A stretch of 64,000 nt of DNA from Acidimicrobiaceae bacterium (GCA_028819005.1 JAPPMP010000026.1:96-64095); one strand, 5' to 3'; counted from the first letter of the stretch, positions 3,891 to 58,233 are shown. Notes: generated by a model not told the origin, from the letters alone. Numbers and translations: made by a program.

Positions 3891-4175
3891 TCAGCGCAGT
3901 TTGAGGCGGCGGGCTACTGCACTGGCGATGCGGATTATCGGGCTGCGGTCCAATTCGACGTGGAGTGTCTGGTTGGCCTCGTTGAGTTCGGTGACGGTGT
4001 CGTCGAGAACTTCGTTTCTGGCTTCGAGGTCCGCCACTTGCTCCTTCAGCACTTCAGCTTGGCTCGTCAGTCCGATGTTCAGATCGCGCAGCCTCAGTAT
4101 CTCGGCGCGGAGTTCGGCTGGATCGGTGCTGTCGATCGGGTCCGGCCCTTCGGGAGTCACTGGTTGTTGTGCCAC
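3891..4175 (-). CDS. Hypothetical coiled-coil protein
   Basis: 94 aa, heptad-rich (AELRAEILRLRDLNIGLTSQAEVLKEQVADLEARNEVLDDTVTELNEANQTL). Starts 9 nt after the stop of the upstream GT2 gene. Confidence 0.45.
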   Translation of the reverse strand: MAQQPVTPEGPDPIDSTDPAELRAEILRLRDLNIGLTSQAEVLKEQVADLEARNEVLDDTVTELNEANQTLHVELDRSPIIRIASAVARRLKLR

Positions 4176-4184
4176 CGCGAAACC

Positions 4185-5594
4185 CTACGTCAAGTGACGG
4201 TTTGTGCGGGGGCGGTGGGCCCCGACCTTGATGGCCGTGTCACGAGGGTCGCAATGATCGCGGGGTTCGGTCGGCTCTAGATGGTCGGCGTTGAGGCGGA
4301 AGTTCTCCGGGTCGTCGGGCCGTCGGTATCCGGGGTGGTACCACGGATCGGCCACTTCGCCCCAGCGGTCGATCCATCGGTCCCACTCCCAGTCGAAGAT
4401 CCTGGCGACTCGGCTGAAGGATTCGCGATGAATGAGGGTCGCCGCGGGCTCGACGATCACCCGGCGTTCCGACCGGCGGATCTTCAGACACAGGTCAACA
4501 TCGTTGAACGAGAGCGGGAAGTGCGTGGACATCGCGCCCAGAGCCAGCAGCAACGATCGGCGTGACATGAGACAAGCCCCGGTGACCGAGATCACGTCAC
4601 GGGCGACAGTTCCGCCGTACCGTTGAGAATCCTCGATCGGCCAGCCGACGAACGGATGGAGGGGATGGGCGTTGTCGATGACCATCCCGGCGTGCTGGAT
4701 CGTGCCGTCGGGGTAGCGCAGCAGCGCGCCCACACCGCCGACCCGTGGATCGCCGAAATGGACGGCCATGGCGTCGATAGCGCCGGGGTCCATCTCCGTA
4801 TCGTCGTTGAGCAGCAGAACGAGCTCGTTGCGCGCCGCGAGAATGCCCTGGTTGCAGGCAGCCGAAAAGTTGAACTCTCCGGGCGGGCGCCGTTCGAGCC
4901 ACACCGGCAGCCCGGCACTGGCGATTTGTTCCGGGTCGCCCTGGTATTCCTCGCCTACGAGCAGGATCACTTCGAGGTTCGGGCGGCCGGTCGCGGCGAT
5001 GCGCGCAAGGCAGCGTTCAACTGCAAGTTCAGTACCGATGCCATCGCCGAGAGCCTTGCCCGCGGTGGGAATCACAATCGATACCGGCGGTTGCTCCGAC
5101 GGGTCCGGGACCAGTCGGAATCGACCCGCTCGGTCGCCTTCGACAGCGGTTGCGGCGATCCCGATCCTGGCCAGGTGGCTGTCCAAATCAGCGACGTCGG
5201 CGCAAGCAGGAGGTCGGGGATGCCTGCTCAGAACTGAAGGCACATGGAGCACGAGCGAGTTGTGCTCGACTAGGCGCAGGCCCAGACCGGGATCGGTCAC
5301 ACTGCAGCCCAGTTCCGCGAGGGTCGTGCACCGCACTGCCACAGGGAGACATGCTCCGGGTTCGTTGAGCAGGCGCGTCGGCGACCACGCGGGGCGGCGC
5401 TCTACAACCCCCGAAACCTCGATGTCGCCGTACACCGCGTCGGCGTCGCGGCGTTGGGCCAGGGCGTCGAGTATGGCACGCTCGCCGATTTCGCTGAGCC
5501 GTCCCGAACTGCCCAGATATATGGCCGCGCCATCGCAGCTCCGGTCACACGGTGACCCATCGGCAGGCGAGGTGACGACATGAAGCAAGCGCAT
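4185..5594 (-). CDS. Glycosyltransferase family 2
   Basis: GT-A signatures VSIVIPTAGK and LVLLLNDDTEM (DxD-type), then TGACLMSRR and NDVDLCLK. 469 aa. Confidence 0.85.
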   Translation of the reverse strand: MRLLHVVTSPADGSPCDRSCDGAAIYLGSSGRLSEIGERAILDALAQRRDADAVYGDIEVSGVVERRPAWSPTRLLNEPGACLPVAVRCTTLAELGCSVTDPGLGLRLVEHNSLVLHVPSVLSRHPRPPACADVADLDSHLARIGIAATAVEGDRAGRFRLVPDPSEQPPVSIVIPTAGKALGDGIGTELAVERCLARIAATGRPNLEVILLVGEEYQGDPEQIASAGLPVWLERRPPGEFNFSAACNQGILAARNELVLLLNDDTEMDPGAIDAMAVHFGDPRVGGVGALLRYPDGTIQHAGMVIDNAHPLHPFVGWPIEDSQRYGGTVARDVISVTGACLMSRRSLLLALGAMSTHFPLSFNDVDLCLKIRRSERRVIVEPAATLIHRESFSRVARIFDWEWDRWIDRWGEVADPWYHPGYRRPDDPENFRLNADHLEPTEPRDHCDPRDTAIKVGAHRPRTNRHLT

Positions 5595-5623
5595 GGGTTG
5601 CGGCGACGATAGCGTGCGCGGCC

Positions 5624-8377
5624 ATGGCCAAGGTTTTCTCGGCTTCTCGACTGCCTGCCTTAGTTGCCGTGGGCATGGTTATTTTTGCCTTCTGGCCTGC
5701 GCTTCTGGGTGGGGGGAGTCTGATCGCCGGAGACTTCGTCTACAACTACGCGGCCCCCTTCGACCACTACCAGTCGGACGATTTCTCCCTTGAGACTGGT
5801 TCAACGGATCCGATCAACATTCACTCCCATTGGGCCCCGTTGGCCGCAGACGTCCGTTCCGGCGACGTCGGCTGGTGGACGTCGGACCTCGCCGGCGGGC
5901 AGCCGACGATGAAGGGCGGCCTGCCGGTGTTCAATCTCGGCTACCTGGTGGCGCCCGGCTGGTTCGCGCCCGGTCTGGTTGCTGCAATCCGTGTTCTGAC
6001 TGCAATCGGGCTCACGTACGGATTTGTGAGGTCGCTGGGCCTTATGCGGGTGTCCGCGCTGGCGAGCGGAATCGCTTTCGCGTTCAGCGGATTCATGGTG
6101 GGTTGGATGAACTGGCCGCAGTCGTCGATTGCCGCGCTCGCGCCGGGACTGTTGTGGGCGGTCGAACGGCTCGTCCGCGACCCCAAGTTGTGGCGGGCGG
6201 TTCCGTTGGGCGCGGTTGTTGCCGCGATGGTCTGGTCGAACTTCCCTCAGGTGACGATATACGTGCTGCTGGCCGCGTCGATCTACGCTGTCGTGCGGTT
6301 GGCGGCTGAGTTGCATCCATGTGCCGACGACCAGGCCGCCGGCAAGCTGAAATCGCTGATGACCACGGGGCTTGTTGCAGTGCTGTTGGGCGCCCTGCTG
6401 GCAGCACCGCACCTGATCGGTTTTGTCGAGTACTTGGACTGGATCGACACGAGCGATCGTGAATGGGGGGACGTCGACTCCTCTGCGGGGGTCAAATACC
6501 TGCTCACCGCTGTCGCTCCGGCGATCTGGGGGCATGGGGCGTTCGGCCCGGACTGGTTCGGCGAGGTGAACTGGACCGAGCACAACGCCTATGTCGGCGC
6601 TTCGGTGTTGATGCTCGCGGTTGTCGGTCTTGTCACAGGTCTCGCGAACGGTGATCGTCGGCGCCGGTCTGCGTTGGCCGGGTTCGCGGCCATCGCCGCT
6701 GCGGGTCTGTTGATCGCCTATATCGGCGGTCCGCTGTCGGTGCCTTTGAGGGAGCTGACGGGTCCGGCGAGCGGAGCGATGACGAGGGGCAAAGTACTGT
6801 GGAATCTGGGCATCGCATTGATCGCGGCTTTCGGCGTGGAGCAGATCGTTCGGCAGGCCATGGGATCCGACAGATGGTCGCTTCGAAGGGGAATCGGAGT
6901 TTCGATAGCGGCCGCGGCAGTCGTCTTCATCGTGTTCCTGCCGTTCTTGGCCGACTGGTTGGACGCGGCCCGATCCCGCGGTCTGGTTCGAGAAGTGGCG
7001 GCGGCGTCGGTCGTCCCGGCGCTGTGCGCTCTCGGTGTGGCCGTGTTGATTCTGGCCCGGCTCCGCTGCTGGTTGGCGGGCGTTGCGGTCGGGTGGGCAT
7101 TGGTGGCCGTCATCGGGTTCGAACTGTTGAGTTTTGCCATGCCGGTGCCGACGATTGTCGAGCCGGCGGATCAGATCACCGCGACCCCCGCTCACGACGA
7201 GGTCAAGGAGCTGCTGGCGCCCGGCGAAAGGCTCAGCGGGGAAGGCTGGACCTTCTTCCCGTCGACCACGGCGTTGTTCGATATCGACGATGCGCGTGGG
7301 CAGTTGTTCAAGTCACGGGGCTACACCGCCTTGTTGCGAGCCGAAGTACCCGACGCGATCACCCTCGGCCAAGAACGCGGCTCTGTGACCTGGCCCTACG
7401 TACCGTTCGATGCCGACATAGCGTCTCCGGTGTGGGATGCGATGGCTGTCGGCGTGTGGGCGCAGTTCCCCTACAGCACACCCCCTGGCACTCTGATCGA
7501 GCCCGCATCGGCGTTTGGAGGCGCCGATCCCGCGGACGGGCCCATCAGGACCACACTGGCTTCGCCGGAAGGTGGATTGCGAGCGGTTCTGATTGAGGTG
7601 GTCTCCAGTGTCGGCGGTTCTGTCGACGTTCACATCGAGGCCGGCGGCAAAAAGAGCACCGAGAGACGCGACATATCCCCGCAGCACACGGGCCTGGCGT
7701 CGTTCGCAATAGCCGGAGAGGACATGGCTGCGGGAACGCCGGTGTCGATCGAGGTCGCGTCGTCTTCGCCTGAGGGCGTGTTGCTGGTCGGGGTCGACGA
7801 GTCCGGGGGACTGGCTGGCGGGATGGTGGCGGGTGACGACGAGTTCCGGCTGGCCCGCACGGGTGACGTCTTGTTGATTGAGCGCCCCGACGCGGCGTTT
7901 GTGCGCCTCGCCGACGCGGCCCTGGTCGAGGCCGATCCACAACGGGCCGCCGACGCGGTGGCGATGAGGTCAGTGGGGGAGAGTTCGGTTGTGGTCGATT
8001 CCGACCTGGGGCTGCCCGCAACGCCGGCGGCGGGCGCCGATCTCGAAGTTGTGAGCGTGTCGTTGGGCAGGGACCGCGTCGAGACTGTTGTGCGCGGCGA
8101 CCGGGACGCGGTGGTGGTCGTCTCGGCGTCCGATTATCCCGGATGGTCGGCGACAGTCGACGGTCGACCAGCGGAGATCGTCACCGCAGACGCGGCGTTC
8201 ATGGGAGTCGCGGTGCCACAGGGCGAGCACACGGTGACCTTGACGTTCCGCCCGCGTCATCTTGGAGTCAGCCTGCTCCTCGCGGGTTCGGGGATTGTGT
8301 TGGCGGCGGGGCTGCTCGCAATTGCGTGGTCCAGCCGAAATCTGTGGCCATTCCGCTCGGCTGGAGAACCTCGCTAG
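5624..8377 (+). CDS. YfhO-like / GT-C-type polytopic membrane protein with large extracytoplasmic C-terminal domain
   Basis: 917 aa. Many hydrophobic segments in the first ~520 aa, then a soluble region and a terminal TM. The tail DYPGWSATVDGRPAEIVTADAAFMGVAVPQGEHTVTLTFRP resembles the conserved YfhO-family C-terminus. Confidence 0.7.
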   Translation: MAKVFSASRLPALVAVGMVIFAFWPALLGGGSLIAGDFVYNYAAPFDHYQSDDFSLETGSTDPINIHSHWAPLAADVRSGDVGWWTSDLAGGQPTMKGGLPVFNLGYLVAPGWFAPGLVAAIRVLTAIGLTYGFVRSLGLMRVSALASGIAFAFSGFMVGWMNWPQSSIAALAPGLLWAVERLVRDPKLWRAVPLGAVVAAMVWSNFPQVTIYVLLAASIYAVVRLAAELHPCADDQAAGKLKSLMTTGLVAVLLGALLAAPHLIGFVEYLDWIDTSDREWGDVDSSAGVKYLLTAVAPAIWGHGAFGPDWFGEVNWTEHNAYVGASVLMLAVVGLVTGLANGDRRRRSALAGFAAIAAAGLLIAYIGGPLSVPLRELTGPASGAMTRGKVLWNLGIALIAAFGVEQIVRQAMGSDRWSLRRGIGVSIAAAAVVFIVFLPFLADWLDAARSRGLVREVAAASVVPALCALGVAVLILARLRCWLAGVAVGWALVAVIGFELLSFAMPVPTIVEPADQITATPAHDEVKELLAPGERLSGEGWTFFPSTTALFDIDDARGQLFKSRGYTALLRAEVPDAITLGQERGSVTWPYVPFDADIASPVWDAMAVGVWAQFPYSTPPGTLIEPASAFGGADPADGPIRTTLASPEGGLRAVLIEVVSSVGGSVDVHIEAGGKKSTERRDISPQHTGLASFAIAGEDMAAGTPVSIEVASSSPEGVLLVGVDESGGLAGGMVAGDDEFRLARTGDVLLIERPDAAFVRLADAALVEADPQRAADAVAMRSVGESSVVVDSDLGLPATPAAGADLEVVSVSLGRDRVETVVRGDRDAVVVVSASDYPGWSATVDGRPAEIVTADAAFMGVAVPQGEHTVTLTFRPRHLGVSLLLAGSGIVLAAGLLAIAWSSRNLWPFRSAGEPR

Positions 8378-49356: not shown

Positions 49357-50157
49357 GTGTCGGTTGAGGATTCAACCCCGACGCCGGGCAGCCGGGTGTT
49401 GCTGGCCTTCGCCGCGATGTTCGCGGGGATCGTGGCGTCCGCGTTGGCAGGGGGGATCGTTGTCGGCGCCGCTGGTTGGGATTTCGACGTCCCTTCGGGT
49501 CTGGGCGACGATTTCGGCCGTGTAGCGGGGCAGGTGGCAGCCGAGGCTGCTCTCGGCCACAACCGTGTTCCCCTCGTGGCTCGAGTGCTGCTGGCAGTGC
49601 CGTTGTGGGCTTGTCTGCTTGGGGTTCCGTGGCTTGCCTCTCGCCGCAAGAAGCTCGATTTGCGTCGGGATTTCGGCTGGGGCGTGACAGGACGCGACGT
49701 CGGCGTCGGTCTCTTGGCGGGGATCGGCACGCAGGCTCTGCTCCTTCCTCTGATCTATATGCCGATTCTCCGGTACATGGACAGCGATGCTCTCGAAGCG
49801 CCGGCTCGTAATCTCGTCGCCTCGGCCAACTCGTCGTTGGGAGTTTTGGCGCTTGTGGTCCTCACGGTGGTGGGGGCGCCTATTGCTGAGGAGTTCTTGT
49901 ATCGGGGTCTGCTTCATCGGGGTTTGGCGGACAAGTTCGCCCGTCGTGGACGGATCGGCACGGTGTTGGCGGTCCTTGGATCTTCAACGGTGTTCGCTGC
50001 TTCGCATTTTCAACTTCTTCAGTTTCCGGGGTTGTTGGCAGTGGGCATAGTTGCCGCAGCTGGGTTCGAGATCACGGGTCGTTTGGGCACCGCTGTATGG
50101 ATCCATGTGGGATTCAATGCGACCAGCGTGGTTGTCCTGCTTCGACAACTCGCCTAG
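49357..50157 (+). CDS. CPBP family intramembrane glutamic endopeptidase (CAAX protease-like)
   Basis: Motif 1 APIAEEFLYRGLL, motif 2 FAASHF, polytopic. Confidence 0.8.
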   Translation: MSVEDSTPTPGSRVLLAFAAMFAGIVASALAGGIVVGAAGWDFDVPSGLGDDFGRVAGQVAAEAALGHNRVPLVARVLLAVPLWACLLGVPWLASRRKKLDLRRDFGWGVTGRDVGVGLLAGIGTQALLLPLIYMPILRYMDSDALEAPARNLVASANSSLGVLALVVLTVVGAPIAEEFLYRGLLHRGLADKFARRGRIGTVLAVLGSSTVFAASHFQLLQFPGLLAVGIVAAAGFEITGRLGTAVWIHVGFNATSVVVLLRQLA

Positions 50158-50163
50158 CGACAA

Positions 50164-50254
50164 CCGTGGTCTGAGCGGCCGTCGAGAGCAGCGAGTGGGA
50201 GCGGGCGACCCGTGGTCTGAGCGGCCGTCGAGAGCAGCGAGTGGGAGCGGGCGA
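50164..50254. repeat. 46-bp direct tandem duplication (2 copies, 45 identical nt) in the intergenic region
   Basis: CCGTGGTCTGAGCGGCCGTCGAGAGCAGCGAGTGGGAGCGGGCGA occurs at 50164 and 50210. It begins 7 nt after the CPBP stop. Confidence 0.95.
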
Positions 50255-50290: not shown

Positions 50291-53200
50291 ATGAACGAAG
50301 AGTCCGCGCGTCCCTCGCTACTTGCGCGGTCCTCCGAGGCCGGGCGTTCGCTGGTGGCGCGTCTGTCGATCCCGAAACAGTCAGTCGATGTGCAAGCGAT
50401 ATTCACTGCCGCTGTCGTCGGCGGGGTCACTCTGTTCGTTGTCTGGAACCTCTCACCCTGGTTGTGGTTCACAGACACGACTCCGACGGGTGGAGACCTG
50501 GGGGCCCACGTCTGGGCGCCTGCCTACCTGCGCGACGAGCTTCTGCCGAATTTTCGGCTGACGGGCTGGTCGCCTGATTGGTATGGGGGATTTCCGGCGT
50601 TCACGTTCTACATGGTCGTCCCCTCGCTGTTGATAGTGATCGTCAACGTCGGGTTGGACATATCAATAGACCTGCTCTCGGCAATCGGTGTTGCTCTTGG
50701 GGCTTTTCTTGTTTCGGGCAGGTTCTGGGCGGAACGGGCCTCGAAGGCGATTGTGGCACTTGGATTCGGCGTCGGAAGCGCACTATTCGGAGCTGTTGCC
50801 GACGGCCGGGTTTTTGCCACCGACTGGTTGGGGTGGTCGCCTCTTGAGCCGGTCGCGTTCAACGACACGTCGGCGGACCTGGCGATAGTTGCGCTGTTGC
50901 TTCCCGCCGCGGTCGGCACGGTCGTGTGGTCCCGGGTGGCCTCAGTCGAGCGTTGGCGTGCTCCCATCACCGCGGGCGCGGTTCTCGGGACAGCCCTGGT
51001 CGTTCCGGTTCCCTACGGCGTCGCCATGAAGTTGGTGGTGATCGCCGGAATCGTTGCGCTCCCGGCCTCGGCATATTTCGCGGGCCGTTTGAGTGGTTTG
51101 GCGTTTCCAGGGCCCGCACTGCTGGCGTTGATGGCCTTGCCGTTCATCTTCGACCGTTCCTTCAACATCTACGGAGGGAACCTGATGTCGACGATGGCCG
51201 GCGAGTTCGCTTACAGCCTTGCGTTGTCGGTTTCGCTGCTGTTCATCGGGTACGCGGCGCGGGGATTGAGCACTGGCCAGGACCGCGGCGCGGCCGCGGT
51301 GCTGCTGGCCCTGACGGGGCTGCTCCACTTGTTTGCAGCATTCTTTGCTCTCGTGGCGTTGTCTGCAATGCTGCTTGTGCGGCTCGGTCGACGCGAGATC
51401 GCTTGGGTGGCGGTCGTGGGTCCGCTCGCCGCGCTGCTGTCGGCGTTCTGGGTGTTGCCCTTTGCGTGGAATGTCCGGTACCTCAACGACATGGGTTGGG
51501 GCAAGGAACGTCGCTATGCGGCAGCGCTGTGGCATCGGGGCGACAATCTCGGTGATCAGGATTTCCTGGTCAACGACCTGCCCCTGCAGGTGTTCGTTGT
51601 TCTCGCGGTCGCTGGCGCGGTGATCTGTGCGGTGCGCCGGGTTCGCTTCGGGCTCGTGTTGAGCCTCGTGGCTGCGATCTTCGCAGTTGCTTTTGTGCTG
51701 CTTCCGGAGAGCCGGCTCTGGAACGTGCGGATTCTGCCGTTCTATTACCTGTCGATCTATCTGCTGGCCGGCGTCTCGGTCGCAGAATTCAGCCGGCTCG
51801 GAGTGCGGATGCTCCGACCCGGGCGCGTCGCGTATCCGGCGTATCCGGCGTATCCGGCGTATCCTGCGTCTCTCGAATCTGGGGAATCAGCGGAGCCCGA
51901 CGCGTCGAACGAGCGCGTGGAGCCTCCGCCGGTCGGGGGTTCCGACCCGACGGTGTGGGCAGCCGTTCCGGCAGGGCTGTTCACGGTGTTGATCCTGGCG
52001 GTCCTGGCGTTTCCGCTCAGGTCTGTGCCGTTCGCAACGAACTTCCAGAGGGTCGACGCTTCCGGCGAAGTCGCGAATCTCTATGGTTTCTCGAGCGTGT
52101 TCGGGGTCGGGCCTGTGGGCGGATGGGACGGATTCGCCACTGAGCATCTCAATCACGGTCCCGGTTGGGTTAGATACAATTTCACGGGTTACGAGCAGAA
52201 GCCTGGAACCGTCGAGTACAACGAACTGGTGTCGACCATGGCCGGGGTCGGCGAGGAGTTCGGGTGCGGGCGGTCGCTCTGGGAGTTCGAGCGCGACCGT
52301 CTGGGAACTTACGGCACGACGATGGCCCCGATGCTGTTGCCTCACTGGACCGACGGCTGCATCGGCTCGATGGAGGGACTCTATTTCGAAGCGTCGGCCA
52401 CCACCCCGTACCACTTCCTGCTCCAGTCGGAGCTCTCCGCGAGTCCGTCGCGAGCCCAACGCGATCTGCCCTACTCGCGACTCGACGTCGGCAAAGGCTT
52501 GAGTGGTCTCCAGACGTTGGGCGTGCGCTATTACCTGGCTGTGTCCGAATCGGCGATTGCGCAGGCGCGTGAAATCGATGAGTTCACCGAGATCGCCGGC
52601 AGCGGGCCCTGGGTCGTTTTTCTGGTCGAGGGTCAACAGCTTGCGGTTGGCCTAGAGCATCTGCCCGTTGTGATCGAGGGGTTGGACGCGGGTGGCGAGG
52701 AGTGGCTGGTGCCGACTGTCGCGGCTTGGGAGACCGCCGAAGACATCCCTTTGATCGCAGCCCGCGGCTCCGATGCTTGGCCGCGAGTGTCGCTTGATGA
52801 TCTGGCCCGCGAGAACGTTGATCTAGCCTCTGCTGCGCAAAGCGGTGATCGAGTGTCGGAGATGCGCGCATTGGCTGCCGCGCTGCCCGACTGGCTGCCG
52901 CGTGAGCCGGTTGAACCGGCGAAGGTCGTCGACCTTGCTGCCGACAATGATTCGATCAGCTTCATTGTCGACAGGGTCGGAACGCCGGTGCTGGTGAGAG
53001 CCAGCTATTTCCCGAACTGGACGGCAACCGGCGCCGATGGACCGTTCCGGGTGGCCCCCAATCTGATGGTCGTGGTACCGACGGAATCGTCGGTGGAGTT
53101 GAGCTATACCCGCTCGCCTGTGCAATGGGTCGGGTGGTTCGCCACCCTGGTTGGAATCGCCCTGCTTGTGGTCGTGGTCCGTCGGAGGCGGGGACGCTCC

Positions 53201-54274
53201 GGTGAGGGCGCTGCTCCCTACTGGGATTTAGCGCGCTCGGAAATAGGCAGTCCTTCGAGTTGCAACCCGTTGTTCCCCGAACTTGGCTCGCTTCGCTCCA
53301 CCCCCAGCTCTTGTTCGCTGCGCTCACCGGCCGCTCGGGCGCAGGCGGGCCGCTCGGGCCACGGCCCCGCAGATCAAGCCGTTCCCGCTCGGGAATCCTC
53401 TGCCTGTTCGCAGGGACTCTTGGGCGGCTCTAGCGCGGCGGGATCCACGGCGTCGAGCACCTGCGAAGACGCGACGGATCAGATGGAGATGACGGCGGCT
53501 GAGGCTGATTCCGCGGGTGGTTTGCGGTTGTCTGTTGTGGTGCCTGCGTATTGCGAGGCGCAACGGATCGCATCGACGATTTCTGAGATTCGTGCACAGT
53601 TGGCCCCTCTTTGCGAAACGGGAGATCTGGAGATAGTGGTGGTCGACGATGGGTCGACGGACGGAACTGCCCGCGCCGCTCGTGACGGCGGCGCGGACCT
53701 CGTAGTCGAGTTGCCGATGAATCGTGGCAAGGGCGCGGCGGTGAGGGCCGGGGTGCTGGCGAGCAGGGGCCGCACGGTGGCTTTCACCGACGCTGATCTC
53801 GCCTACTCCCCAGGCCAGCTGTTGTCGATGCTCGCCGCTGTCGAGGCTGGTTGTGACGTTGTGATCGGCAATCGCTACGCGGAGGGCTCCGTCGCCCACG
53901 GCGGAGTATCGGGTGTGCGCCGCCTGGGCAGCCGGACAGTGAACGTGTTTGCTCGGATCCTTCTGTCGGTTAGTCATCGGGACACCCAGTGCGGTTGCAA
54001 GGCGTTTCGATCCGATGCGGCTAGGGCTCTCATGGGGTCCGGGCGGATCGATGGATTCGCTTTCGACATTGAAGTGCTCTTCCTTGCTGAGCGTTACGGG
54101 TTTTCGATAGCTGAAACTCCGGTGACGGTGGTCAACAGCGACTCGTCGACGGTTCGGACTTGGAGCGACGGATTCAAGGTCGCCCGCGACATCGCTTTGA
54201 TCCGGCGACTCGGCAGGCGCGGAGCGTACCGCTCGGCGTGGCGGCCCGACGAGCGGTCGACGCCGACGACGTAG
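50291..54274 (+). CDS. 1327-aa ORF: giant polytopic GT-C/YfhO-like membrane protein joined in frame to a Ppm/Dpm1-like GT2 domain
   Basis: N-terminus TTPTGGDLGAHVWAPAYL followed by many TM segments. YfhO-like tail ASYFPNWTATGADGPFRV, last TM, then RRRRGRSG. An ~90-codon odd linker follows, then LRLSVVVPAYCEA...VVVDDGSTDGT...FTDADL. No in-frame stop lies between the two parts. Confidence 0.6.
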   Translation: MNEESARPSLLARSSEAGRSLVARLSIPKQSVDVQAIFTAAVVGGVTLFVVWNLSPWLWFTDTTPTGGDLGAHVWAPAYLRDELLPNFRLTGWSPDWYGGFPAFTFYMVVPSLLIVIVNVGLDISIDLLSAIGVALGAFLVSGRFWAERASKAIVALGFGVGSALFGAVADGRVFATDWLGWSPLEPVAFNDTSADLAIVALLLPAAVGTVVWSRVASVERWRAPITAGAVLGTALVVPVPYGVAMKLVVIAGIVALPASAYFAGRLSGLAFPGPALLALMALPFIFDRSFNIYGGNLMSTMAGEFAYSLALSVSLLFIGYAARGLSTGQDRGAAAVLLALTGLLHLFAAFFALVALSAMLLVRLGRREIAWVAVVGPLAALLSAFWVLPFAWNVRYLNDMGWGKERRYAAALWHRGDNLGDQDFLVNDLPLQVFVVLAVAGAVICAVRRVRFGLVLSLVAAIFAVAFVLLPESRLWNVRILPFYYLSIYLLAGVSVAEFSRLGVRMLRPGRVAYPAYPAYPAYPASLESGESAEPDASNERVEPPPVGGSDPTVWAAVPAGLFTVLILAVLAFPLRSVPFATNFQRVDASGEVANLYGFSSVFGVGPVGGWDGFATEHLNHGPGWVRYNFTGYEQKPGTVEYNELVSTMAGVGEEFGCGRSLWEFERDRLGTYGTTMAPMLLPHWTDGCIGSMEGLYFEASATTPYHFLLQSELSASPSRAQRDLPYSRLDVGKGLSGLQTLGVRYYLAVSESAIAQAREIDEFTEIAGSGPWVVFLVEGQQLAVGLEHLPVVIEGLDAGGEEWLVPTVAAWETAEDIPLIAARGSDAWPRVSLDDLARENVDLASAAQSGDRVSEMRALAAALPDWLPREPVEPAKVVDLAADNDSISFIVDRVGTPVLVRASYFPNWTATGADGPFRVAPNLMVVVPTESSVELSYTRSPVQWVGWFATLVGIALLVVVVRRRRGRSGEGAAPYWDLARSEIGSPSSCNPLFPELGSLRSTPSSCSLRSPAARAQAGRSGHGPADQAVPARESSACSQGLLGGSSAAGSTASSTCEDATDQMEMTAAEADSAGGLRLSVVVPAYCEAQRIASTISEIRAQLAPLCETGDLEIVVVDDGSTDGTARAARDGGADLVVELPMNRGKGAAVRAGVLASRGRTVAFTDADLAYSPGQLLSMLAAVEAGCDVVIGNRYAEGSVAHGGVSGVRRLGSRTVNVFARILLSVSHRDTQCGCKAFRSDAARALMGSGRIDGFAFDIEVLFLAERYGFSIAETPVTVVNSDSSTVRTWSDGFKVARDIALIRRLGRRGAYRSAWRPDERSTPTT
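51830..51865. repeat. 9-nt in-frame tandem repeat x4 (AYP)
   Basis: GCGTATCC(G/T) x4 encodes AYPAYPAYPAYP in a loop of the giant membrane protein. Confidence 0.95.
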
Positions 54275-54279
54275 CAGGA

Positions 54280-54423
54280 GCGGAGTGTGCCCCCTGTCCC
54301 TGAACGCCTGCGGCGCCCGCCAGTGTCGTGCGGGTCGCGGGGGTGGACGGCGCGGAGTGTGCCTCCTGTCCCTGAACGCCTGCGGCGCCCGCCAGTGTCG
54401 TGCGGGTCGCGGGGGTGGACGGC
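54280..54423. repeat. 72-bp tandem duplication (2 copies, 1 mismatch) in the intergenic region
   Basis: Copies at 54280 and 54352. It begins 6 nt after the stop of the giant ORF and ends 40 nt before ppk2. Confidence 0.95.
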
Positions 54424-54463
54424 GAGTTCACCCGACAGCGTCCAGCGGCTAGCCTGCATGTAG

Positions 54464-55234
54464 ATGAAGACGAAGGAATACGACCGTGAACTGGCTCGTC
54501 TGCAGGAGGAGCTTGTGCGGTTGCAGCGCTGGATCCGTCACAAGGGCCTCAAGGTGGTGGTCATCTTCGAAGGCCGCGACGCGGCAGGCAAGGGCGGGGT
54601 GATCAAGCGGATCACCGAACGGCTCAACCCCCGGGTGGTCCGGGTGGTGGCCCTCGGCACGCCGAGCGATCGCGAGAGGACCCAGTGGTGGTTCCAGCGG
54701 TACGTGGCGGAACTGCCCGCGGCGGGGGAGATGGTGCTGTTCGACCGGAGTTGGTACAACCGCGGCCTTGTCGAGCCGGTCATGGGATTCTGCACCGACG
54801 AGGAGTACAGGGAGTTCCTTCGCTCATGTCCCGGGTTCGAGCGCATGTTGGTGCGGTCGGGGATCGTCTTGATCAAGTACTGGTTCTCGGTTAGCGACGC
54901 CGAACAGGAGCGTCGGTTTCAGAGCCGGATCTCTGATCCGGTCAGGCGCTGGAAGTTGTCGCCGGTCGACCTTGAGGGCCGAGCCCGCTGGGTCGACTTC
55001 TCGAGGGCCAAGGACACCCTGTTCGAGCACACTGACATCAAGCAGGCCCCCTGGTATGTGGTCAATGCCGACTCCAAGAAGAAGGCTCGCTTGAACTGCA
55101 TCTCGCATCTGCTGTCACAGATCCCCTACGAGGCGGTCCCCTGGGAGGACGTCGAACTGCCCGAGCGACAATCGGCGGCGGGTTACGTGAGACCGCCGAT
55201 CTCGGATCAGACTTTCGTGCCCGAGAGGTACTGA
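54464..55234 (+). CDS. ppk2: Polyphosphate kinase 2
   Basis: VVIFEGRDAAGKGG (Walker A), DRSWYNR and the lid region are typical of single-domain PPK2. 256 aa. Confidence 0.9.
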   Translation: MKTKEYDRELARLQEELVRLQRWIRHKGLKVVVIFEGRDAAGKGGVIKRITERLNPRVVRVVALGTPSDRERTQWWFQRYVAELPAAGEMVLFDRSWYNRGLVEPVMGFCTDEEYREFLRSCPGFERMLVRSGIVLIKYWFSVSDAEQERRFQSRISDPVRRWKLSPVDLEGRARWVDFSRAKDTLFEHTDIKQAPWYVVNADSKKKARLNCISHLLSQIPYEAVPWEDVELPERQSAAGYVRPPISDQTFVPERY

Positions 55235-55291
55235 GCGCAGCCGTTCACTCCGATGCGCTCGCGTAGCCGCGCATGTTCTAGATTGCGCTGG

Positions 55292-56635
55292 ATGGGCTCG
55301 GATTTAGACGCGATCTTCAAGGCTTACGACGTCCGCGGCACTGTCCCGGACCAGTTCGACGCAGACGGCGCGAAAGCGATCGGCGGGGCGTTCGCCCGGT
55401 TCGTTCGGGCCAGGGGGGATCGGTCGATTCTGGTCGGCCGCGACATGCGGCCCGAGGGTGAAGAGTTGGCGGCGGCCTTCGCAGCCGGAGCGATGGACCA
55501 CGGAGTCGATGTGGTCGACGTCGGGTTGTGCGCCACCGACATGATGTATTACGGGTCGGGTCACCTGGGCATTCCAGGAGCGGTTCTCACGGCCTCGCAC
55601 AACCCGGCGGGCTACAACGGAATCAAGATGTGCCTTGCCCATGCCGCGCCCATCGGCGAGGACGGTGGGCTCGGAGATATCAAGCAGATGGCGATTTCCG
55701 GCCCTGACCCTGCAGGCAGGCCTGGCACTGGCTCCGAACTCGACATCCTCGAGGGGTATGTCGCCCATGTGCGCTCCTTCGTCGACCTTGACGCTCTCAA
55801 GCCGCTGCGAGTGGTGGCCGATACGGCCAACGGGATGGGAGGTTTGGTCGTCCCGCCGGTATTTGCGGGACTGCCGTTTGAACTCGACCACATGTACCCG
55901 GAGCTCGACGGCACATTCCCGAACCATCCGGCTGATCCCATTCAGCCCGAGAACTGCGAGGATCTCGCAGAAATGGTGCTGCTGAACGGGGCGGACATCG
56001 GACTGGCCTTCGACGGTGATGCGGATCGGGTGTTCCTCATCGACGAGAACGCCCGGGCTGTGTCGGGGTCGTTGACGACCGCCATGGTCGCGCGCTCGAT
56101 TCTGGCTCGTGAACCGGGCGCGCTCATTGTCCACAACCTGATCTGCTCCAAGACCGTGCCCGAGGTCATCGCCGAGGGGAACGGCACGGCTGTGCGGACA
56201 CGAGTCGGCCATTCGTTCATCAAGCAGGTGATGCTCGAGACTGGGGCCGCTTTCGGCGGCGAGCACTCGGGTCACTACTACTTCCGCGACAACTTCGGAG
56301 CCGACAGCGGATTGATCGCCGCATTGGTGGTGCTTGAAGCGTTGAGTGGGCATTCGGCCGGTCTTTCCGATCTTGTCTCGGAGCTGGATCGCTATGCAGT
56401 TTCCGGCGAGATCAACACGAAGGTGGATGATCCGGCTGCGGTGATCGACAGAGTGGCCGGTGCTTTCTCCGGAGCCGACCAAGATCGTATGGACGGCCTC
56501 ACGGTCGACCTCGGAGATTGGTGGTTCAACTTGCGTCCGTCCAACACTGAGCCGCTGCTTCGTCTCAACCTGGAAGCGGGAACCCAAGAAGATGTTGATC
56601 TCCGCGTGCAGGAAGTTCTGGCCCTGTTCGCCTAG
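55292..56635 (+). CDS. manB: Phosphomannomutase / phosphoglucomutase
   Basis: FKAYDVRG, phosphoserine loop TASHNPAGYNGIK, metal loop FDGDADRVF, GEHSGHY. Start at ATG 55292. Confidence 0.9.
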   Translation: MGSDLDAIFKAYDVRGTVPDQFDADGAKAIGGAFARFVRARGDRSILVGRDMRPEGEELAAAFAAGAMDHGVDVVDVGLCATDMMYYGSGHLGIPGAVLTASHNPAGYNGIKMCLAHAAPIGEDGGLGDIKQMAISGPDPAGRPGTGSELDILEGYVAHVRSFVDLDALKPLRVVADTANGMGGLVVPPVFAGLPFELDHMYPELDGTFPNHPADPIQPENCEDLAEMVLLNGADIGLAFDGDADRVFLIDENARAVSGSLTTAMVARSILAREPGALIVHNLICSKTVPEVIAEGNGTAVRTRVGHSFIKQVMLETGAAFGGEHSGHYYFRDNFGADSGLIAALVVLEALSGHSAGLSDLVSELDRYAVSGEINTKVDDPAAVIDRVAGAFSGADQDRMDGLTVDLGDWWFNLRPSNTEPLLRLNLEAGTQEDVDLRVQEVLALFA

Positions 56636-56673
56636 GCGCCCGTCAGCGCTCGGTTTCTGGTTGACTGGGACGC

Positions 56674-56913
56674 ATGACCCTCGACATTCGCCTCCTTGAG
56701 ATTCTGGCCTGTCCCATCGACCGTGGGCCGCTGCTCTATTTCGCCGACGAAGAAATGCTCTACAACCCGCGTCTTCAGAAGCAATACCGCATTCATGAAG
56801 GCGACATACCGGTGATGCTGCCCGAGGAGGCAAGCGATGTGGGCGCCGAGGAACATTCACGTCTGCTGGCCAAAGCCGAGGCGGAGGGCGTCGCTTCGAC
56901 GCCTGGGAGCTGA
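56674..56913 (+). CDS. Trm112-family small protein
   Basis: LLEILACPIDRGPLLY ... IHEGDIPVMLPEEA. 79 aa. Confidence 0.75.
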   Translation: MTLDIRLLEILACPIDRGPLLYFADEEMLYNPRLQKQYRIHEGDIPVMLPEEASDVGAEEHSRLLAKAEAEGVASTPGS

Positions 56914-57060
56914 CCGCTGCCATGCCCTCTCCAGGATTGCTTGAGGCTGTGGCGCGTTTGCCTGGCCAGGTGCGCGACATGGCTGTCGCGGCCTCCTGTG
57001 CCCGTGGCCTTCCCGATCGGTGTACGACGGTGCCGGCTGAATGGTGATCGGCTCGCTGGC

Positions 57061-58233
57061 ATGGTGCTGATCGATGGTGCGCTAAAGAACTACGACTGGG
57101 GCTCGGTCACGGCGATCCCTGAGTTGCTGGGAAGGGGGGCGACCGGTGAACCCGTGGCTGAGCTGTGGTTCGGGGCTCATCCCTCTGGGCCGGCCGTGGT
57201 TCGCGCATCGGACATTCCGCTCGATGAACACATAGAGGCTGACCCGGTTGCCGCTCTCGGCGCCGCGGTTGCCGATGAATTCGGTTCGCTTCCCTTCTTG
57301 TTGAAGGTGTTGGCCGCGGGGTCCCCGTTGTCGTTGCAAGCGCATCCGTCCACCGCGCAGGCTTGCGCGGGTTTCGAGCGCGAGGAGTCGCTGGGCATTG
57401 ACCGCAACGGCGAGAATCGCTGTTTTCGTGACAGGCGGCACAAACCGGAGTTGATCTGCGCTCTGAGCGAGTTCAGCGCTCTTTGCGGTTTCCGCGAGCC
57501 CGCAGAGTCGCTTGGGCTGTTGGCCACGATTCCGACTGAGGCTCTTGATCCGGTCAGGGCTCGGCTCACCGCCGAGCCGTCGTCTGAAGGCGTCCGCGGT
57601 CTCCTGCAATGGTTGCTGTCGCACAGCAGAGAGTCCGCCGCTGATCTGGTCGAGTCGGTAGTGTCGGCTTGTCTGGGCGAGTCCTCGCTGCCGTTCGCGG
57701 CTGAGCGGGAGATGGTGGTGGAATTGGGCCGCAGGTATCGCGGCGATCCGGCAGTGGTGGTCGCACTGCTGTTGAACCTGGTGACGCTGCAGCCGGGCGA
57801 GACGATCTTCTTCGGGCCGGGCAACCTGCACGCCTATCTGCGGGGCACGGGCGTGGAACTCATGGCCAACTCCGACAATGTCGTGCGGGCCGGTCTGACG
57901 ACCAAGCACGTAGATGTGGCAACGCTGCTCGACATCGTTGACACGACGCCGATGGCTGTTGATGTGCAGCGGCCGTCGGCCGTCGACGGCGTGGTCAGCT
58001 ATCGAAGCCCCGTTCCGGAGTTCTCACTCCAGCGGATTGATCTGAATGGTGTAATCCAGATTGAACCGGGGCCGGCGATTCTGCTGTGTGCCTCGGGTCG
58101 CGCGCATATTGAAGGCGAAGCCGCCCGACAACCCTTGCCCCGCGGCTCAGCCGCTTGGATGCCTGCCTCTGACGGACCGGCGCACTTGAACGGCACCGCA
58201 ACCCTGTTCCGCGCAGGTCTCGGCCCCGCTTAG
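57061..58233 (+). CDS. manA: Mannose-6-phosphate isomerase, class I
   Basis: YDWGS near the N-terminus, ELWFGAHPSGP, zinc-site LSLQAHPS, ELMANSDNVVRAGLT. Start at ATG 57061. Confidence 0.85.
   Translation: MVLIDGALKNYDWGSVTAIPELLGRGATGEPVAELWFGAHPSGPAVVRASDIPLDEHIEADPVAALGAAVADEFGSLPFLLKVLAAGSPLSLQAHPSTAQACAGFEREESLGIDRNGENRCFRDRRHKPELICALSEFSALCGFREPAESLGLLATIPTEALDPVRARLTAEPSSEGVRGLLQWLLSHSRESAADLVESVVSACLGESSLPFAAEREMVVELGRRYRGDPAVVVALLLNLVTLQPGETIFFGPGNLHAYLRGTGVELMANSDNVVRAGLTTKHVDVATLLDIVDTTPMAVDVQRPSAVDGVVSYRSPVPEFSLQRIDLNGVIQIEPGPAILLCASGRAHIEGEAARQPLPRGSAAWMPASDGPAHLNGTATLFRAGLGPA

Follow-up and report, generated by a model that had tools for sequence, protein, structure and literature searches.

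Three-component systems for extracytoplasmic glycosylation include GtrA/GtrB/Gtr(type) of Shigella and Salmonella phages and CsbB/GtcA/YfhO of Bacillus, Listeria and Staphylococcus, in which a cytoplasmic glycosyltransferase of family GT2 loads polyprenyl phosphate, a GtrA-type protein flips the product, and a GT-C glycosyltransferase transfers the sugar outside (PMC7389260, PMC11127046). In the two-domain mycobacterial Ppm1 (Rv2051c; D1-D2), a synthase having no transmembrane (TM) helix occurs in one species on the same chain as a membrane domain, and elsewhere as a separate interacting protein (PMC3485146). Here, we describe an open reading frame (ORF) in a 64,000-nucleotide stretch of DNA from Acidimicrobiaceae bacterium (GCA_028819005.1 JAPPMP010000026.1:96-64095), hereafter called the window and numbered from its first letter, which joins a large GT-C-like membrane domain to a GT2 domain. 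It probably encodes (probability about 0.8) a conserved bifunctional membrane enzyme made of a GT-C transferase and the GT2 that makes its donor, with a linker that carries an in-frame miniature inverted-repeat transposable element (MITE).

The locus resembles the three-component systems in that the predicted model of its GT2 domain matches GtrB, and in that relatives carry GtrA fused or adjacent. It differs from them in having GT-C and GT2 in one chain, with GT2 at the C-terminus of GT-C and GtrA unlinked, and in its GT-C part of ~970 aa, which includes a ~365-aa outer domain and has no YfhO or GT-C Pfam match. The initial annotation had called this part YfhO-like, a label that has to be dropped, as YfhO (PF09586) gave no match in it (E up to 10) nor in any of 42 homologues. 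PpgS (Rv3631), which works with Rv3632 and Rv3779, ranks first among the NCBIfam matches of the GT2 domain, and the PpgS and Ppm1 systems are, like the present one, actinobacterial and have a lipid-phosphate-sugar synthase feeding a GT-C, as is proposed here. The parallel to Ppm1, which had been drawn before, is apt (PMC3485146), with the difference that the membrane partner D1 of Ppm1 is not a product-consuming GT-C, whereas here putative synthase and putative consumer are fused. A literature search found no paper on a GT-C::GtrB-type fusion, which is not proof of absence.

The ORF at 50291..54274 (3984 nt) was delimited correctly in the initial annotation; it starts with ATG and contains zero stops or frameshifts. 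Forty related genomes were searched, and the fetched loci were re-analysed by six-frame ORF extraction and BLASTP. Of the 17 other species in this Acidimicrobiaceae genus, 16 have membrane part and GT2 joined in a single open frame; these fused frames have 1233-1430 aa from stop to stop, and their membrane parts are 64-90% identical. Metagenome collections hold about 19 more fused proteins of 1227-1293 aa. The distance between xYxRS, found before the last TM helix, and RLSVVVPA at the GT2 start ranges from 67 to 151 aa across species, the frame being always kept, and the differences in linker length among fused species include tandem-repeat expansions. In comparisons with four congeners, the membrane part has a dN/dS of 0.12-0.15, GT2 one of 0.10-0.13 and the alignable linker one of 0.34-0.53, and both domains are under strong purifying selection. 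Because of the single frame in 16 of 17 congeners, the in-frame linkers and the low dN/dS, the fusion is old (genus-wide) and maintained, appears to be functional, and predates the radiation of the genus. The ORF is neither the product of a recent stop-loss nor an assembly chimera of two genes. Of the origins proposed earlier, a recent stop-loss or frameshift fusion thus falls away, and a genuine fusion of donor synthase and transferase is supported by the congeners, by purifying selection, and by the GT-C-like and polyprenyl-phosphate glycosyltransferase folds and the signs of a cytoplasmic tail described below. It had also been considered that orthologues might always be two genes with a conserved stop; the two parts are indeed separate genes in other genera, but the 16 congeners have one frame and no conserved stop.

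The GT2 domain gives the sole Pfam match in the ORF (PF00535, aa 1081-1242, E 8e-26). Its best NCBIfam matches, PpgS, AglJ and Dol-P-hexose transferase, are all far below the equivalog cut-offs (for PpgS 80 bits vs 370, so the domain is not an equivalog), and the best match among PDB sequences (phmmer) is the Pyrococcus furiosus DPMS 5mlz (E 1.8e-11). The domain is modelled with pLDDT >90, and in a Foldseek search of the model ranks 1-20 are taken by ArnC, DPMS and GtrB, with GpgS from rank 21. The GT2 alignment (A2) shows no variation in VVDDGSTDG and TDADLAY, the motifs that contain DDG (aa 1119-1121) and DAD (aa 1167-1169). By its closest structures and sequences, the domain is most likely of the polyprenyl-phosphate glycosyltransferase type. 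Hydropathy revealed no hydrophobic segment past aa 963; GT2 homologues instead have an N-terminal GtrA/DPMS TM domain, and in the present protein membrane anchoring would be supplied by the preceding TM helix of the GT-C part. The neighbouring manB and manA genes suggest mannose as the sugar, and some sources name GT2 homologues Dol-P-glucosyltransferase.

For the N-terminal part, hmmscan gave no Pfam match in the first 971 residues (E up to 10). A homologue search retrieved 2565 sequences; an alignment of 42 homologues is strongly conserved, and in these 42 weak Pfam matches were found to DUF6541 (5/42, best E 1.3e-7) and PTPS_related (6/42, best E 0.018). Its AlphaFold2 model (pLDDT 77, pTM 0.82) has a GT-C-like fold, as the initial annotation had anticipated: Foldseek against PDB returned three significant matches, all of them AftD (best E 1.9e-5, probability 1.0), and the next matches of meaningful probability are AftA, STT3, ArnT, DPY19, PimE, AglB, PglB, and Pmt4. 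These too are GT-C enzymes, to which nearly all matches of better probability belong. The part is accordingly placed in the GT-C fold by its predicted model, and the match is at fold level only. AftD (PDB 6w98), a mycobacterial arabinofuranosyltransferase and the best structural match, resembles the N-terminal part in being a GT-C of very large size, in its big extracytoplasmic domain and in its C-terminal TM return; it differs in having 13% identity at a TM-score of 0.29 and no detectable sequence homology with the N-terminal part, and in using decaprenyl-P-arabinose without a fused donor synthase. GGDLGAH (aa 67-73) and SPDWYGGFP (aa 94-102) contain the invariant positions D69 and D96 of the 42-sequence alignment, the family-wide forms being GGDxGAH and SPDWYxGFP. 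D69 and D96 are located in the stretch from TM1 (aa 34-53) to the following TM helix, where the model has short juxtamembrane helices, and they are candidate catalytic acidic residues. The extracytoplasmic domain occupies aa ~577-942. A 9-bp x 4.4 repeat at 51830-51869 encodes AYPAYPAYPAYP in another loop of the GT-C part (aa ~513-552), which is of low confidence in the model and probably cytoplasmic, and in which relatives have different low-complexity sequence.

Topology was judged from hydropathy and K/R counts. Acidic residues prevail in the ~365-aa segment that precedes the last TM helix (49 D+E vs 24 K+R), and the helix is followed directly by RRRRGRSG, which had been noticed earlier and lies one base further on than reported (53180-53203, not 53179-53202). 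GtrA has four TM helices and both termini on the same side, taken as the cytoplasmic one, and proteins in which GT-C, GtrA and GT2 are all fused carry the four-helix GtrA right after the position of the last GT-C helix. Charge pattern, RRRRGRSG and GtrA site all agree and are consistent with a cytoplasmic GT2, which is the side the initial annotation had given to the tail.

Outside the genus, two arrangements of the same components are found. In one, the GT-C gene is followed by a bare GT2 gene, the start of which overlaps or abuts the stop (loci L022, L023, L024, L030, L032); in the other, it is followed by a GtrA-GT2 fusion gene (L026, L028, L029, L031). Among free-standing GT2 homologues, those closest to the present domain (58-65% identity) are nearly all ~400-aa GtrA (PF04138)-GT2 proteins. 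Three protein clusters from metagenomes (P0039, P0080, P0091; 1390-1435 aa) are triple fusions, in which GT-C occupies aa 1-~1000, GtrA (the GtrA/DPMS TM domain) ~1007-1118 and GT2 ~1141-1304. The present genome has one GtrA-family gene, which is unlinked (contig 23, C23:22556-22894). The ancestral arrangement would be adjacent genes, which were probably joined into one polypeptide in this genus. Because of its linkage or fusion to a GtrB-type GT2 and to GtrA, we infer that the GT-C part would use a polyprenyl-phosphate-linked sugar on the outer face. The linkers and tails at GT-C/GT2 junctions are hotspots of short tandem peptide repeats, for example VESAQ-type 15-nt repeats in locus L020 (genome G016) and EEPAER repeats that end the membrane gene in L024 (G021).

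The initial annotation had found the ~90 codons between the domains unlike the rest. This oddness is real but narrower, being confined to a 192-bp block. The six closest relatives (L002-L007) have a clean gap at 53228-53419 in a DNA alignment, the extra 192 bases standing between GAT and TT(C/G)GGC, and a protein alignment of the 17 fused orthologues has the insert in this genome alone, the relatives having the short linker ...PFWDF|GGPRAAG.... The insertion consists of a 189-bp element and a probable 3-bp target duplication (TTA...TTG), and it is stop-free and in frame. BLAST of the 192 bp against its own assembly gave >100 high-scoring segment pairs on >25 contigs, with full-length copies 77-86% identical; both arms are present at about 28 loci (the complete copies), in addition to which there are many partial copies. 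Members of this GC-rich family, which is open in several frames, are built of a left arm, 0 to n cores of 28 nt, and a right arm, and where n >1 the cores are separated by 33-nt units, giving a 61-bp period; the copy in the fusion ORF has one core. Aligned copies have 21-nt imperfect terminal inverted repeats (TIRs) in common (AGAGCGCGCGCAAATAGGCAG / CTGCCTRTTTGCGGGGCCTCT), and most are flanked by TNA (TTA, CTA, TAA, TGA or TCA), the fusion-gene copy by TTA...TTG. The family is present in all 17 congeners; among the matches listed, the full-length ones are from the two closest species (G005, G002), and one additional weak match has 67% identity. Other copies in this genome are intergenic or at gene ends, and only that of the fusion gene lies deep in a coding frame. 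Further intragenic copies were considered and rejected, as their candidate spanning ORFs were spurious on at least one side (e.g., upstream of a STAS-domain gene, and upstream of an aldehyde dehydrogenase).

The looks of the linker thus come from a MITE translated in frame, and not from a leftover intergenic spacer. For codon positions 1/2/3, the insert has a GC of 0.64/0.72/0.66 and the membrane part one of 0.66/0.49/0.75, and the real signal of oddness is this lost codon-position periodicity, not A/T-ending codons as such. Of the two compositional features reported before, Ser/Cys richness stood (Ser 22% vs 8% in the membrane part; 3 of the 12 Cys of the protein), and the A/T-ending codons counted for less, GC at third positions of the insert being only at the 14th percentile among 64-codon windows of the ORF. 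The model has pLDDT <50 over aa 973-1072, so the insert would add 64 Ser/Ala/Pro-rich residues predicted to be disordered. It has no Rfam match, folds no better than shuffled sequences (z = +1.24), and contains no promoter or terminator by scanning; a search of the 52-contig assembly for an autonomous insertion sequence (IS) partner found no TIR pair >600 bp apart. Precedents exist for MITEs lying in frame within genes, above all the Rickettsia palindromic elements (PMC10969869). Both are short, non-autonomous repeats with TIRs, which lie in frame, are stop-free and add a peptide at a permissive site; unlike those, the present element is specific to Acidimicrobiia and GC-rich, and has TNA flanks of the IS5-family type and a 61-bp module of variable number. 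The new point is the combination of fusion and in-frame MITE, which resolves the puzzle of the linker.

Many MITE copies have internal arrays, e.g., C52:6775-7519, C34:44539-44967, C47:4963-5497, and C50:30874-31312, in which the 33-nt unit varies from array to array but not within one, and N runs interrupt several of them. A CRISPR interpretation of these arrays (28 + 33 nt, a type I-E-like geometry) was rejected because the units are identical within an array; it also fails in that the genuine CRISPR array of the genome, C52:37529-40564, has an unrelated repeat. The genuine array has about 42 repeats, the repeat containing CCTTCAATGGAGGCCCGA, and beside it a Cas1 match (C52:41178-42017) lies in a 548-aa open frame that is unusually long and may be a fusion.

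Two further interpretations concern what the insertion did to the protein. The MITE may have disabled or uncoupled the enzyme, the frame being open only through recency; the insertion is found in this genome alone, and the inserted peptide is of non-coding composition. Yet the 3984 nt hold no stop or frameshift, both domains keep all invariant residues, the site tolerates 84-aa length changes among relatives and is predicted disordered, and the TIRs of this copy have already diverged, which together with its fold z of +1.24 suggests that it is not brand new. An incipient pseudogene is therefore highly improbable. It is doubtful, on the other side, that the segment is an early exaptation of a family recurrently recruited as disordered linkers and tails across Acidimicrobiia, as the palindromic elements are in Rickettsia, and that, separately, the fusion is self-sufficient, the donor passing through the GT-C domain without a dedicated flippase.

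A conserved bifunctional enzyme has several observations to contend with. The one congener without the fusion, G001, has a frameshift within a linker tandem repeat that splits the gene, and a segmental duplication there yields a separate 375-aa gene made of the last TM helix, the linker and GT2. Because of this split and duplicate, the fusion is not obligatory, and, to judge from the G001 sequence, the two halves can evidently work as separate proteins. The GT2 fold also resembles soluble enzymes of the GpgS type, which rank lower; profile searches found no PDB-sequence homologue of the N-terminal part, and its model superposes on solved GT-C structures with TM-scores of only about 0.29. The exact protein was found by look-up on one metagenome scaffold only, its source, and many MITE copies have variable 61-bp internal arrays, so that a collapsed array at the fusion-gene copy is possible; as 61 is not a multiple of three, one more unit would break the frame. 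In the complete genome of G001, the split fusion and the duplicate span 3943-7811 of locus L013 (G001:C1:3235000-3244000), and a ~1.6-kb block with small ORFs, possibly a toxin-antitoxin pair, lies between the split fusion and the 375-aa gene.

The G001 gene bears on whether the fusion is only nominal, i.e., whether GT2 is mainly translated alone from an internal start, the open linker being incidental. The codons ATG GAG ATG were reported before and are present after the linker, with ATGs at 53483 and 53489 followed by ...GGLRLSVVVPAY, and the Met at the 53489 position is kept in the nearest congeners; relatives and G001 manage with a pair of separate genes, and in G001 the gene of TM helix, linker and GT2 stands alone. 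Independent translation is nonetheless unlikely, given that 16 species are stop-free across linkers with many indels, including tandem-repeat expansions of at least 60 aa, and that linker dN/dS is <1. The conserved Met is missing in more distant fused congeners, no Shine-Dalgarno-like motif precedes 53483 when the sequence is read by eye, scanning gave no promoter-like site, and a GT2 without the upstream TM helix would be anchorless.

The single scaffold and the MITE arrays bear on an assembly artefact, in which metagenome misassembly would have put a repeat copy, or its present copy number, at this place, the real gene having a short linker or an out-of-frame array. Only one metagenome scaffold has the locus, the element is repeated in many copies, and other copies hold 61-bp arrays broken by N runs. 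Against this, no other copy is more than 86% identical to the insert, and exact words common to the insert and the remainder of the assembly reach 41 nt at most, an argument against a misjoin driven by repeats. Both flanks resume the orthologous gene precisely, the TTA/TTG junctions fit a transposition footprint, and the insert measures exactly 64 codons, which makes such an artefact very unlikely. All considered, the fusion in this ORF is genuine and conserved; it represents a compact form of a known pathway and carries an ordinary in-frame MITE insertion.

We infer the enzyme activities, sugar, acceptor, flippase and tolerance of the insert from these data as follows. The ORF product would hold two of the three activities of the three-component pathway for extracytoplasmic glycosylation. 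The cytoplasmic GT2 would move a hexose from a nucleoside diphosphate sugar onto polyprenyl phosphate, the single unlinked GtrA-family protein of the genome would presumably flip the lipid-linked sugar across the membrane, and the ~970-aa GT-C domain would pass it to an envelope acceptor on the outer face. The last GT-C helix would tether the TM-less GT2 via the disordered linker, into which, in this genome only, the 189-bp MITE with its probable 3-bp target duplication has entered.

The features of the locus are collected in Table 1. Hexose-activation genes lie downstream of the fusion gene (55253..58233, plus strand), and an FtsH gene, on the minus strand, also neighbours it. A 46-bp exact tandem duplication (50164-50254) is found between the stop of the CPBP protease gene and the fusion-gene start. 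In the close relative P0002 (MERGEQDGTMSAMNEE...), the ATG corresponding to 50254 lengthens the N-terminus in frame; here it is out of frame, which supports ATG 50291 as the true start. Six nt past the fusion-gene stop begins a 72-bp x 2 tandem repeat (54280-54424, 98% matches), and a 121-aa gene call over it on the minus strand is probably spurious.

Table 1. Features of the fusion gene and its neighbours (positions in the window).
Feature	Position	Strand	Remarks
Whole ORF: GT-C-like membrane domain, linker and GT2 domain	50291..54274	+	1327 aa + stop; ATG start
N-terminal polytopic membrane domain, aa 1-971	50291..53203	+	uncharacterised family, predicted GT-C fold
First extracytoplasmic loop with GGDLGAH and SPDWYGGFP	50489..50596	+	invariant columns, 42-sequence alignment
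Last TM helix, aa 944-963	53120-53179	+	hydropathy; helix at 943-964 in predicted model
RRRRGRSG directly after last TM helix, in frame	53180-53203	+	
Interdomain linker, 93 codons, aa 972-1064	53204-53482	+	predicted disordered
MITE-like in-frame insertion, 64 codons, aa 980-1043	53228..53419	+	DNA alignment with relatives
GT2 domain, aa 1065-1327, probably cytoplasmic	53483..54271	+	PF00535; most likely polyprenyl-phosphate glycosyltransferase type
GT2 motif VVDDGSTDG	53639-53665	+	
GT2 motif TDADLAY	53786-53806	+	
C-terminal amphipathic helix of GT2	54152-54223	+	
CPBP/Rce1-like intramembrane protease gene	49357..50157	+	upstream, conserved neighbour; PF02517, E 2.9e-15
PPK2	54464-55234		between fusion gene and hexose-activation genes
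Phosphomannomutase/phosphoglucomutase (manB)	55253-56635	+	
Trm112-like gene	about 56674-56913	+	
Mannose-6-phosphate isomerase (manA)	56941-58233	+	

Non-coding-looking stretches in long ORFs of metagenome-assembled genomes can be real repeat insertions, not frameshift errors, and the MITE described here clearly exemplifies, for actinobacteria, the translation of selfish DNA within a conserved enzyme. The series of arrangements (two genes, GtrA-GT2 beside GT-C, GT-C-GT2, the triple fusion, and one split revertant) offers ready-made constructs for the cooperation of synthase, flippase and transferase. As a Rosetta-stone link, the fusion places a large unannotated membrane family, one with thousands of Acidimicrobiia homologues but without a Pfam model, in lipid-linked extracytoplasmic glycosylation, and names its probable donor-making partner.

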